53,519 nucleotides of DNA from Candidatus Yanofskybacteria bacterium RIFCSPLOWO2_01_FULL_42_49 (GCA_001795615.1 MGKI01000008.1:1-53519); one strand, 5' to 3'; shown: positions 35,649 through 46,766, counted from the stretch's first letter. Translations and numbers: made by a program. The notes: generated from the letters alone by a model not told the origin.

Positions 35649-36137
35649 ATGAAAATTATTATACTTCAAAATATTAAAGGACTCGGACAGATAGGGGACA
35701 TTAAGAATGTCTCTGACGGTTATGCCAGAAATTTTTTGTTACCGAGAAAAATGGCTAAACTGGCAACTGAAGCTTCAATAAAAGAAGTTGACGCGTTAAA
35801 GAAAAAACTAGAAGTGGCTCAGAAGCTAGAGAAAGAAAATGCTTCAAAGGTAGCCGAACAATTGAAAGATGTCGTGTTGGAATTTACAAGGAAAGCGACC
35901 AAGACTGGCAAAATCTATTCGGCTGTTACCAAGGAGGATATCGCTGAAATACTGACCAAACAACTCTCCGCCGAAGGCGGGCCAGCCTTTGGCTGGAAGA
36001 TTGAACCAAACTCAGTTAATCTTGAGGGGCATGATGGAGGCCACATCAAACAGCTCGGTGAACATCTCGTCAAAATAGAACTCGCGCCAGACGTGGTTGC
36101 GGAGGTCAAGGTCAAAATTTCACAGGAAGAAAAATAA
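35649..36137 (+). CDS. rplI: Ribosomal protein L9
   Basis: MKIIILQNIKGLGQIGDIKNVSDGYARNFLLPRKMA. At 162 aa it is longer than usual because of an in-frame hairpin segment. Confidence 0.92.
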   Translation: MKIIILQNIKGLGQIGDIKNVSDGYARNFLLPRKMAKLATEASIKEVDALKKKLEVAQKLEKENASKVAEQLKDVVLEFTRKATKTGKIYSAVTKEDIAEILTKQLSAEGGPAFGWKIEPNSVNLEGHDGGHIKQLGEHLVKIELAPDVVAEVKVKISQEEK

Positions 36138-36157
36138 TTCCGCCTTCTTTTCGCTTC

Positions 36158-36306
36158 AGACTCTAGCCATCCTCGACACGCCTCCGGTTCCCCCGCGAGG
36201 GACCTCGGCTACTTTCGCCCAACCTTTTCTCGGGCAGTTAAACGATTATACTGCCCTCGACCGTGCAAAAGGTTGGATCTCTAGTGTCTCGTCATGACTA
36301 GAGTCT
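36158..36306 (+). ncRNA. Structured element 'A' (unknown class), homologous to 46599-46762
   Basis: Closing stem agactctag/ctagagtct, with inner helices cccaacctttt/aaaaggttgg and gggcagt/actgccc. The 118-nt core is about 80-85% identical to the reverse complement of 46621-46738, and differences are concentrated in paired positions. Stops occur in all frames shared by the two copies. Confidence 0.6.
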
Positions 36307-36781
36307 TAAGCTACCTTGCTTGGCGTTCGACAGAAACTTCTCTGAAAACCTGTCACTATTGGAATCCATCGCCAGCTGGCGGACCGGTTAAACCTCGTCC
36401 TCTTCCTCAACTCATCAAGTGATTCGAAGATAATAAGGCCTCGCTTCCTTGATGGCTTAGCTTGTACTTGTTGGCCAGCGAGAAGCCATCCCTATTTGAA
36501 TCACTATGACAAATAGATAGCAGTTGCAGATGAGCGACGCGATTTTTCTGGGAAACCGAGTCGGGGATGTCAGGTTCGGTCGAGCTCAGCTCGATCCGCA
36601 TGGCCTGACAGGGGTGACCCCGAGCGGTCAGAAAAATTAGGAGTGAATCGCAACTGCTCTATGAGGAGTCCGTGATGAAAATGAGGATGGCTTCGAACGA
36701 AAGATGAGGAATCGTGATGAGAAGACGACAAGGTCGAACAAAAATATATATCTTTTACGCTATTCATTGTATAATTAAATC
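36307..36781 (+). other. ORF-free, GC-enriched, highly self-complementary region (candidate ncRNA or long leader)
   Basis: No credible ORF. Hand count in 36541-36600 is 34/60 G+C. Nested long-range helices are agcagttgc/gcaactgct, atttttctg/cagaaaaat, tgtcagg/cctgaca and tcgagc/gctcga. Four tgaGGA/ttaGGA motifs lie in 36638-36712. Confidence 0.5.
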
Positions 36782-37696
36782 ATGCGAAAAGAATTCCAGA
36801 CAAACGGTTTGAGATGGATTCATATATCTAAGCCAACCGGGGAAGATGCTGAATTTGTAAATACGCTTTTCCCTTTTAACCCTTTCGTCATTGAGTCTAT
36901 CACCGCCCCGACCCTACATCCTTTGGTAGATGATTTTGACGATCATCTTTTTCTCATAATGCACTTCCCGATCATCTATAAGGACTGGCAGTCAAATGAA
37001 ACTGCCGAAGTTGATTTTCTTATAACTAAAAACTTGCTTATCACCGTTACTTATTCGGACTTTGAGCATATTGAACAAATCTTCGGCTTTCTTAACAGCA
37101 ACGAGAAATTAAAAAAACAAGTAACCCGCCACCATACCGGTTTTATGCTCCACCATATAATTGACTATATGTTTCAGAAACTCGTCAGCCATCTTGATTT
37201 TATGGAAGGGGAAATCACGGAAATCGAAGACAGGATTTTTGAAAAAAGAAATGTCAGGATGATAGAAGAAATTTCTCACATCCGAAGGGATATATTGGAT
37301 TTCAGGAGACCGCTTAAACCGCAGTCAGCCGTTCTCAAAATGTTTGCGGAAAAAGCTGAAAAGTTTTTCGGCAAACCGATGGCGCCGTACTTAACCGATA
37401 TAATCGTAACCGAAGACAGGATAATGAGCATCATCGATAACCAAAAAGAAACCGTCGACGCTCTTTACCAAACAAACGAGTCGCTGATGTCATCCAATAT
37501 TTCAAGCATCATTACCATCCTTACAATATTTTCAGCGGTCATAATGCCGCTTAATCTCATGGCATCTCTTTGGGGAATGAATCACCAGACCATGCCGTTG
37601 CGCGACGGACAGTTTGATTTTTGGATAATCATGGGGATTATGGCTATCATCGCAGTATCACTGCTTGTCCTGTTCAAGAAAAAAAGGTGGTTATAA
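36782..37696 (+). CDS. corA: CorA-family magnesium/cobalt transporter
   Basis: 304 aa. Two C-terminal TM segments and the LWGMNHQ (GMN) signature. Confidence 0.9.
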   Translation: MRKEFQTNGLRWIHISKPTGEDAEFVNTLFPFNPFVIESITAPTLHPLVDDFDDHLFLIMHFPIIYKDWQSNETAEVDFLITKNLLITVTYSDFEHIEQIFGFLNSNEKLKKQVTRHHTGFMLHHIIDYMFQKLVSHLDFMEGEITEIEDRIFEKRNVRMIEEISHIRRDILDFRRPLKPQSAVLKMFAEKAEKFFGKPMAPYLTDIIVTEDRIMSIIDNQKETVDALYQTNESLMSSNISSIITILTIFSAVIMPLNLMASLWGMNHQTMPLRDGQFDFWIIMGIMAIIAVSLLVLFKKKRWL

Positions 37697-45386: not shown

Positions 45387-46766
45387 CTACAAGTAGTCAT
45401 TTGGATTTACTGTATTATTATAATTGAAATACAGTTGACCATTCTTTTCATTAATATAGGTGAAAAACTCTTTATATATGCTCAAGTGGACATGAGAACC
45501 AGTTGAAAATCCAGTTGAGCCCTCATAACCAATTATATCACCGGCTTTAACCTGGCTGCCAACTCTTACAAACTCAAAAGCGCTCAGGTGGCCGTAAACA
45601 CTGACTAAATCATACGGCGGATGCTTGATAGCCACCCAATTTCCCCATCCGTCATTTTTGCCGTTAGCAACAACCTCTCCGTCGCCTATCGCCTTAACCG
45701 GGCTACCGTAACCGGAAGCCATATCAATGCCGTTGTGAGGCGCTCCGCCGTAAGGTCCGCGCCTTGAGTTACATCGAGCATATCTGGTACATCCGTATCC
45801 TTGAGTAATTCTATAGTCTTCTTCCGGCCACTTGAAAAGATCGGTTCCCTTTTTAGGCAAGTTGTGCGCTTCCACACGAAGAATATACAGTCCACCCTGT
45901 ATAATCTTGGTCTCAATCTCTTTCATCTCCGTAAAAAAGAGCGACTGTTTTCTCTCCACTTCTTCAAGCAGCCTTTGATACTCGGCTTCCTGTCCTTTGG
46001 TAACTTTTAGCAAGCCATCTTTTTCTTTTTGGGTACCGCCTAAAGCTAGTTTCTGACTAGACTGCTGGCGATTTAAATTTTCAAGTTCCCGCTTTTTATT
46101 TTCCAGGTTAGATTTATGGTTTTCGTAAGCGTTTTTTGTGGAACGCAAATCGTTGACTAACGAAAGCAGACTTTCGCTGACACTGGTTGCCTGCTGAACC
46201 CGGTTGAGAAAATCAGAGATGTTGGCATTCTTCATCATGGCAACAAGCAGGCTCTCTCTGTCTTGCCGATAAAGTTCAAGCAATAGTTCCCCAATTGCGC
46301 TTTTCTGATATTCAATCCTGCCTTGAGTGGTATATATTTCGTCAGTCGTGTTTTGTATTTCTATGCCCGTGCTGTTGATTTTTTTTATAGTGATATTTAT
46401 TTGGGTTTTAAGGCTATTTATCTGATTCTGGAGAATTGAAATTTCTTTATTCAACGATTCAGCATTGGCGTGTTCTTTAGCAATATTCTGGCGATATTGT
46501 TCGGCTTGCTGTTCAAGCCGTTCTATCTCCTGGCGCAATTGGGAGATTCGTTCATCGTCGGTTTGGGCAGTAGCTGCTGGCACAAAAAAAATCAGCGCAA
46601 AAAAAAGAAGCAAGCCAATTAGAGACACTAGAGACCCAGCCCTTTGCATGGTCGAGGATAGTATAATCGTTTCACTGTCCGAGAAAGGGCTGGGCGAAAG
46701 TAGCCGAGGTTGCACGCTGGGCAACCGGAGGCGTGTCGAAAATTGGCTTGCTTCTTTTTTTTTCAT
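45387..46766 (-). CDS. M23 (LytM-type) peptidase with a coiled-coil region
   Basis: HNGIDMA, GWGNWVAIKH, YGHLS and GSHVHLSI. The longest ORF starts at 46766, where its ATG overlaps the gltX TGA as ATGA. An alternative start at 46649 (MQRAGSLVSLIGLLLFF) would exclude structured element B. Confidence 0.85.
   Translation of the reverse strand: MKKKEASQFSTRLRLPSVQPRLLSPSPFSDSETIILSSTMQRAGSLVSLIGLLLFFALIFFVPAATAQTDDERISQLRQEIERLEQQAEQYRQNIAKEHANAESLNKEISILQNQINSLKTQINITIKKINSTGIEIQNTTDEIYTTQGRIEYQKSAIGELLLELYRQDRESLLVAMMKNANISDFLNRVQQATSVSESLLSLVNDLRSTKNAYENHKSNLENKKRELENLNRQQSSQKLALGGTQKEKDGLLKVTKGQEAEYQRLLEEVERKQSLFFTEMKEIETKIIQGGLYILRVEAHNLPKKGTDLFKWPEEDYRITQGYGCTRYARCNSRRGPYGGAPHNGIDMASGYGSPVKAIGDGEVVANGKNDGWGNWVAIKHPPYDLVSVYGHLSAFEFVRVGSQVKAGDIIGYEGSTGFSTGSHVHLSIYKEFFTYINEKNGQLYFNYNNTVNPNDYL
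46599..46762 (-). ncRNA. Structured element 'B', second copy of the 36158-36306 module
   Basis: A perfect 22-bp closing stem (aaaaaaaagaagcaagccaatt / aattggcttgcttctttttttt) encloses the conserved core. The inner helix is cccagcccttt/aaagggctggg. It lies between the gltX stop and the M23 signal peptide, in the same sense relative to its flanks as copy A. Confidence 0.6.

Follow-up and report, generated by a model that had tools for sequence, protein, structure and literature searches.

A mosaic of nested hairpin-forming repeats, probably of mobile origin, inserted between rplI and the corA promoter of a Candidatus Yanofskybacteria genome

Few known genomes are as small or as densely packed as those of CPR/Patescibacteria, and a spacer of 644 nt in one of them raises the question of what such a gap holds and how it came to be there. 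The spacer lies in a 53,519-nt stretch of DNA from Candidatus Yanofskybacteria bacterium RIFCSPLOWO2_01_FULL_42_49, referred to here as the window, between the stop codon of rplI (L9; 35649–36137, plus strand), at 36137, and the start codon of a CorA-family gene (36782–37696, plus strand), at 36782. An earlier note had described 36307–36781 as part of a gap free of credible ORFs, raised in G+C and rich in helices, and had proposed that it encodes a structured RNA. The absence of a credible ORF and the raised G+C are both borne out. The largest ORFs in the spacer comprise 65 aa or fewer, those of 64–65 aa lying on the minus strand, and seven ORFs of 34–66 aa in and around the gap gave no Pfam match at E < 0.05. 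G+C content is 46.7% in 36307–36781 and 48.8% over the whole gap, compared with a window average of 41.9% and 40–42% in the two flanking genes, and the count of 34 G or C among the 60 nt of 36541–36600 is exact. The gap also folds more stably than shuffled sequence on either strand (z = −5.3 for the plus strand, −4.7 for the minus strand). The minus-strand ORFs of 64–65 aa are the one feature that speaks for a decayed protein-coding gene, which we regard as the least credible of the readings considered here: besides the lack of a Pfam match, substitutions between copies of this sequence (described below) are paired across stems, indels are not multiples of three, and relatives have no gene at that position.

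The comparison of rplI–corA spacers among relatives, which the earlier note had suggested, was made on loci fetched through their CorA proteins, five of which (L002, L003, L005, L019 and L020) encode CorA proteins 78–89% identical to that of the window. A genome-contig scan with L9 gave only one distant locus, which was of no help. In all five relatives, rplI lies directly 5′ of corA and the spacer measures 49–123 nt. An ordinary terminator hairpin follows rplI, and beyond it an extended −10 box (tgtataat or tatataat) lies 6–7 nt 5′ of the corA start. The window has the same extended box, tgtataat, its hexamer at 36770–36775 and 6 nt before the ATG, within a plus-strand segment (36740–36781) that aligns with the five relatives and constitutes a remnant of the ancestral spacer. 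Some 600 nt of the window, from 36141 to about 36745, are missing from all five. This block is a lineage-specific insertion between the rplI stop and the corA promoter, and the insertion displaced the intrinsic terminator of rplI. Two independent assemblies (L021 and L022) and Logan unitigs reproduce the window sequence exactly, which argues that the block is real and not an assembly artefact.

These comparisons bear directly on a second interpretation, that the stretch is a cis-regulatory leader of corA or a Mg2+ riboswitch, as might be suggested by a highly structured segment located directly 5′ of a gene for a CorA-family Mg2+ transporter. Since the relatives that have no block keep the −10 box beside the start codon, the block lies upstream of the corA promoter and of the transcription start, and so cannot be a corA leader. 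The block is also missing from those relatives in spite of their closely similar CorA proteins, no M-box or other Rfam riboswitch was matched even at E = 10, and the core module of the block occurs elsewhere beside unrelated genes; we therefore give this interpretation very little credence. As a separate observation, the corA start has no Shine-Dalgarno sequence, and several of the five relatives share this arrangement together with the extended −10 box. On the basis of these sequences, a leaderless corA mRNA looks ancestral.

At least three repeat modules, all of them non-coding and able to form hairpins, make up the mosaic; we call them element A, arm pair B and core C. The block begins after the rplI stop with a junction (36138–36148, plus strand) that contains ccgccttct, the remnant of a truncated left terminal inverted repeat. 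Next, at 36149–36311 on the plus strand, comes element A, a structured and dispersed repeat about 160 nt long, with stem arms at 36153–36170 and 36294–36311. It is followed by a linker (36312–36390) that is found only in this genome and includes a 12-nt palindrome, cgccagctggcg, at 36370–36381. Sequencing depth over the linker equals that of the single-copy flanks in runs X7–X10, and among the fetched relative loci the linker matches same-strain contigs only. Then come the left outer arm region, B-left (36391–36476, plus strand), the core module C (36477–36697, plus strand), a rod of about 221 nt with eight helices that is most conserved at 36501–36675, and the right outer arm, B-right (36698–36739, plus strand), which pairs with 36395–36417 in B-left.

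The four long-range pairings that the earlier note had named are all present. The arms agcagttgc/gcaactgct lie at 36519–36527 and 36650–36658, the arms atttttctg/cagaaaaat at 36542–36550 and 36629–36637, and the minimum-energy fold includes tgtcagg/cctgaca and a tcgagc/gctcga tip. The rod of about 140 nt that these pairings were taken to define is real but too short, as further arms at 36482–36504 with 36672–36694, and at 36395–36417 with 36715–36737, extend it to about 345 nt. Two smaller hairpins had been placed on its 5′ side. The first, gatggctt/aagccatc, is present in the sequence, but in related copies AAGCCATC (36483–36490) pairs with the downstream GATGGCTT (36686–36693) and not with its upstream neighbor; the second, ctatttg/caaatag, can be read in the sequence but is not conserved in related copies.

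Variants of this strain provide an independent view of the boundaries of the block. Two independent assemblies, L025 and L026, match the window at 100% identity from 36149 across corA, and in both the block and corA are joined to a ComM-like gene, not to rplI, with the breakpoint at 36149 (L025:1590-1660 and L026:680-750). The 60 nt upstream of the breakpoint are an inverted copy, 81% identical, of window positions 36683–36739, such that the whole block is bounded by inverted repeats of 57–63 nt; B-right together with 36683–36697 forms the right one, and the window has only a truncated left repeat. At the junction the variants read gttcggcctcaccgccttctcatcacaattcctcatctttcgcttcag, of which 17 nt are missing from the window. 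The variant arrangement represents either a rearrangement between repeats or a second arrangement of the strain. A further assembly, L023, which is 99% identical to the window (L023:1-140), carries a mini-element of about 66 nt, TATATTTGATAACGAGGAGC...AAAATATACGAAG, in the apical loop of element A that is missing at window positions 36235–36260. Insertion in L023 took place at TATA, with TA/TATA duplicated there. The mini-element is also found in three copies of core C (L010:95-163, L015 and L012:2907-2975), which belong to two subfamilies and in all of which it occupies one fixed column.

If the stretch encoded an RNA of a known family, covariance models might be expected to recover it. A scan of the rplI–corA gap for tRNA and tmRNA found none, and the Rfam search that the earlier note had advised returned no match at the gathering score anywhere in the window (Rfam 15). 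At E ≤ 10, the sole match in 36050–36850 was to an archaeal box C/D sRNA, sR28 (E = 2.3), a chance match that we attribute to two GUGAUGA words in the 3′ arm. These words (36671–36678 and 36713–36720), 42 nt apart, resemble archaeal box C and are not kept in other copies of family C. Consensus scans of 36000–36900 for promoters and terminators detected nothing promoter-like; a single weak terminator-like site fell within C, which is no more than shuffled sequence yields.

The modules are not confined to this locus. Metagenome contigs from lake water, hot spring, groundwater and soil match the gap in separate pieces, 36165–36290 (element A), 36391–36438, 36501–36675 and 36702–36737, each with foreign flanks, and for the second of these, in B-left, the sequence into which the contigs continue is homologous to 36439–36468. 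In unrelated metagenomes, depth summed over the pieces is as much as about 40 times the depth of the single-copy flanks. Element A recurs in the window at 46622–46739 (minus strand, 87% identity) and is present at a different site in the relative L002 (79% identity), with many partial matches in unrelated metagenomes. A, B and C are each found at numerous unrelated positions between genes, both in Candidatus Yanofskybacteria and in metagenomes from groundwater, soil, lakes and hot springs. Two pattern scans of viral contigs gave no match and one chance match, respectively. It may also be mentioned that a structured repeat resembling element A (cggttccccc...gggacc) occurs in Yanofskybacteria contigs at L012:5990-6110, L012:3080-3150 and L027:3650-3790, at sites between Nramp and hrcA and between dnaB and cysS, and that in L027 it took the place of most of a core C copy. 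The proposal of a structured RNA thus stands in part: the stretch is non-coding and structured, and its central 221 nt covary, but it is not a single RNA gene of this locus, since five relatives do without the block and its modules are found at many unrelated sites in other genomes.

Core C proved the most informative of the modules. Copies were collected by a pattern scan of metagenome contigs and by look-ups through neighboring genes, and the family comprises at least 13, a small set in which several are related. All are intergenic, and their neighbors, identified by product sequence, include dnaK (four loci), ftsZ, typA, dnaB/cysS, dnaJ, a jag-like gene and others. Both orientations occur; within co-directional gene pairs, about four copies are antisense and about three sense. 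One 67.7-kb contig, whose DnaK is the NCBI protein of Candidatus Yanofskybacteria RIFCSPHIGHO2_01_FULL_41_21, carries five copies within 27 kb.

An alignment of the ten full copies supports a single rod with 64 pairs in eight helices. Compensatory changes, on both sides of the pair, are seen in 36 of the 64, and the share of cells that are paired is 95.3%, compared with 82.6% in shuffles (none of 500 reached any of the measures) and about 44% when partners are slid. Between these stems lie unpaired motifs that are invariant or almost so, GGAA (36551–36554), CATGG (36599–36603), GGGGTGA (36611–36617) and GAGGA (36663–36667), and the module is preceded by AGCGA (36477–36481) and followed at its 3′ end by GAACGA (36695–36700). 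The tip of the rod is variable, with CUUG and GAAA tetraloops in some copies. Within the 64 pairs, G·U mismatches outnumber A·C mismatches by 43 to 5. The copies are not all independent, and this count is weaker for it, but by column the ratio is still 19 to 5. In each of the ten copies the plus strand is more stable than its complement, the energies adding up to −1035 and −914 kcal/mol, respectively. Strand-symmetric mutation in duplex DNA is expected to yield both types of mismatch equally. The excess of G·U over A·C therefore indicates that selection acts on C in single-stranded form, whether as RNA or as folded DNA. A small ORF behind a conserved GAGGAG was considered as well and rejected, as the GTG start and the frame differ between copies. 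No conserved promoter or terminator was seen across the copies.

The GGA motifs deserve separate comment, as they had led the earlier note to speculate that the stretch titrates CsrA or RsmE. The four motifs in the last 140 nt (36640, 36665, 36685 and 36708) and the repeated atgaggaRtc(c)gtgatga were found just as described, and when five other copies of C were searched against Rfam, the only match was to RsmY, in the relative copy L018 (E = 0.056). That match scores 23.3 bits where the gathering score is 57, comes from one of the five copies scanned, and has no counterpart in the window. Two of the motifs (36685 and 36708) are fully paired with the TCC-rich 5′ arm and so lie inside stems, and GAGGA at 36663–36667 is the only one conserved. 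The element is moreover multi-copy and present in both orientations, and a tblastn search with two CsrA proteins of the window and all fetched loci (265 kb) found no csrA. We thus consider a CsrA/RsmE-titrating small RNA highly improbable.

How copies of C are gained and lost can be followed at individual sites. Just 3′ of dnaK, C is present in the same orientation in L012, L016, L027 and L028; the site is empty in L029 and L030, where a single AGCGA or AACGA (reverse strand) lies beside the stop codon. AGCGA marks the 5′ foot of many copies, and GAGCGA their 3′ foot. AGCGA-like direct repeats flank some 6–7 of 11 copies, the inverted form (TCGCTC at the 3′ foot) occurs in four, and neither in one. 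AGCGA may belong to the element, act as a cleavage signal or derive from duplication of the target. Sibling copies are instructive in another respect. The sibling units have the terminal inverted repeats ATCACTTTTCTCAC/GTGAGAAAAGTGAT and AATTTTTCTCA/TGAGAAAAATT. In two pairs on one contig, siblings are 98–99% identical over about 191 nt and are framed by arms that are unrelated between siblings and complementary within each copy. This pattern fits either insertion into the centers of pre-existing palindromes or old copies whose cores have been homogenized by conversion. Between dnaB and cysS in L027, a locus-specific arm and 17 nt of the C copy of L012 remain, followed by a different element, and this remnant lends support to gene conversion of old copies. 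Within the fetched DNA, we found no empty versions of the palindromes that flank C, and no excision or insertion of C itself was seen within one strain.

The degree to which C is conserved places a further constraint on its interpretation. The orthologous copies downstream of dnaK in L012 and L027 are identical at 155 of 160 positions (96.9%), compared with 60.4% identity at fourfold-degenerate sites of dnaK and 86.8% over the whole gene; for L012 and L016, the figures are 67% for the element and 31% for fourfold sites, which are saturated. Family C is conserved about as well as coding DNA and far above neutral sites. Conservation at this level calls for purifying selection, for continuing conversion by master copies that are themselves constrained, or for lateral spread.

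We consider it probable that the stretch consists of nested, non-autonomous hairpin repeats of the MITE/REPIN type that were inserted upstream of the corA promoter. C has the features of a MITE in being short, non-coding, present in multiple copies at unrelated sites, and palindromic over its whole length, with terminal inverted repeats. The modules would have spread as non-autonomous mobile DNA of this type, perhaps moving through a folded single-stranded intermediate of which a HUH/Y1-type or other transposase would read one strand, and AGCGA at the foot of the hairpin would act as the target or cleavage signal. Gene conversion would keep the cores alike within a genome, with locus-specific arms that stay complementary. 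In the window, the block is probably transcribed as the 3′ tail of rplI, in which case the rod would stop or protect the transcript, and corA would retain its own leaderless promoter.

A parent autonomous element with C-type ends was not found in the 265 kb made up of the window and the fetched loci, nor was a transposase linked to C; the only Y1 genes in the window or the loci are those of L027 and L028. There, a gene for a 219-aa Y1 transposase (PF01797, HUH motif HFHLL) lies between Nramp and hrcA (L027:6640-7470, L028:6600-7420) and is missing at the syntenic sites of L012, L029 and L030. The hairpin CAGGCAAGACCTGTACAGGTCTTGCCTG, and not C-type sequence, lies to either side of it, an arrangement resembling a REPtron (RAYT plus REPs). 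Two points stand against the MITE/REPIN reading in its simplest forms. Unrelated complementary arms around near-identical cores do not fit the cut-and-paste movement of a fixed unit, and conservation above that of synonymous sites is better explained by a host function than by a purely selfish element.

Known repeat systems offer partial parallels. REPINs accumulate compensatory changes across their hairpins (PMC3116915), and TnpA-REP reads folded single-stranded REPs strand-specifically, through a 5′ motif and bulges (PMC8266576). Because Y1 transposases read one strand of folded single-stranded DNA, the G·U bias of C could be explained without transcription. C resembles REPINs in being non-coding, multi-copy and extragenic, in its long compensatory hairpins and one-strand features, and in its frequent location at the 3′ ends of genes; like REPs, it has mismatches or bulges that are conserved, as is the motif at the foot of the hairpin (PMC8266576). 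It differs in size, at 220 nt (about 345 nt with the outer arms) compared with 20–40 nt for a REP and roughly 70–110 nt for a REPIN, in having several conserved internal loops, and in its foot motif, which is AGCGA and not GTAG. Unlike REP/RAYT systems, it has no RAYT flanked by C-type sequence in the window and fetched loci.

Correia elements (CREE/NEMIS), ERIC/IRU, RUP, bcr1 and the Rickettsia palindromic elements are small, non-autonomous intergenic repeats that are palindromic over their whole length and lie near gene ends. Transcribed bacterial MITEs of this kind form long RNA hairpins when co-transcribed with genes and can affect termination or mRNA stability, and nested insertions and roles in rearrangement are known for them. 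C is likewise small, palindromic, intergenic and located beside gene ends. In contrast to these elements, it has no known parent insertion sequence and no clear fixed target duplication, its cores are conserved across genomes in which synonymous sites are saturated and show a G·U bias on one strand, and near-identical cores are carried between unrelated complementary arms. PATEs, which derive from IS200/IS605, have strand-specific hairpins, and their insertion at short motifs without classical duplication would fit AGCGA; however, they possess two separate small subterminal hairpins where C is one continuous rod, and neither an orientation bias nor a TnpA was seen for C. TIGR arrays and IS110 bridge RNAs share with C the occurrence in CPR bacteria of hairpins with internal loops (PMC12045711). 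Such RNAs are organized as tandem arrays or located within an insertion sequence, by a Tas/Nop-domain or IS110 gene, and their loops are variable guides (PMC12045711). We rejected an assignment of C to this class, as its copies are solitary and located by housekeeping genes, its loops are conserved and its stems vary, and no such gene is adjacent.

The main alternative, conceivable though in our estimation doubtful, is that C is a functional structured RNA or single-stranded DNA module kept by the host, a small RNA or a protein-binding platform at gene ends whose mobility is secondary or ancient. The strand-specific fold, with its excess of G·U pairs and the greater stability of the plus strand in every copy, argues in this direction, as do internal-loop sequences that remain invariant between covarying stems, the CUUG and GAAA tetraloops at the variable tip of some copies, the identity of the dnaK-downstream orthologs far above that of fourfold sites, a level of family identity near that of coding DNA across deep splits, and the persistence of the elements in very small, streamlined genomes. 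Less easily reconciled with a host module are the occurrence of C in both orientations, nearly balanced between antisense and sense within co-directional pairs, the failure to see a conserved promoter or terminator, the many copies per genome, and a site that is filled or empty among close relatives, together with the copy lost or replaced in L027. No RNA run searched for the core of the window contains it, and three small SOLiD metatranscriptomes from the L012 study, which have no reads even on dnaK, are uninformative. By this account, which we hold only tentatively, core C is a strand-specific module under purifying selection at the ends of housekeeping genes and not merely selfish DNA. It could be an exchangeable, conserved core of 190–220 nt that sits at the tip of complementary arms specific to each locus and that gene conversion keeps uniform, and its role in the host could be, for example, that of a protein-binding insulator, a terminator or an independently transcribed small RNA.

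Returning to the MITE/REPIN reading that we favor, the spacer shows that structured non-coding repeats of several families are tolerated in CPR genomes and may even be put to use there. At rplI–corA and related loci these repeats replace terminators, nest within one another, mark rearrangement breakpoints and break metagenome assemblies, and our search of the literature found no description of such elements for Yanofskybacteria or the CPR group. There is also a practical consequence for annotation, in that a gap of these genomes that is rich in helices and raised in G+C should not be called a riboswitch or small RNA until one has looked for dispersed copies and for relatives without it. Given its conservation and its fold on one strand, family C lends itself well to asking whether repeats of this kind are selfish elements, have been domesticated, or are both, and the strong strand-specific conservation of the core is the part that deserves follow-up.
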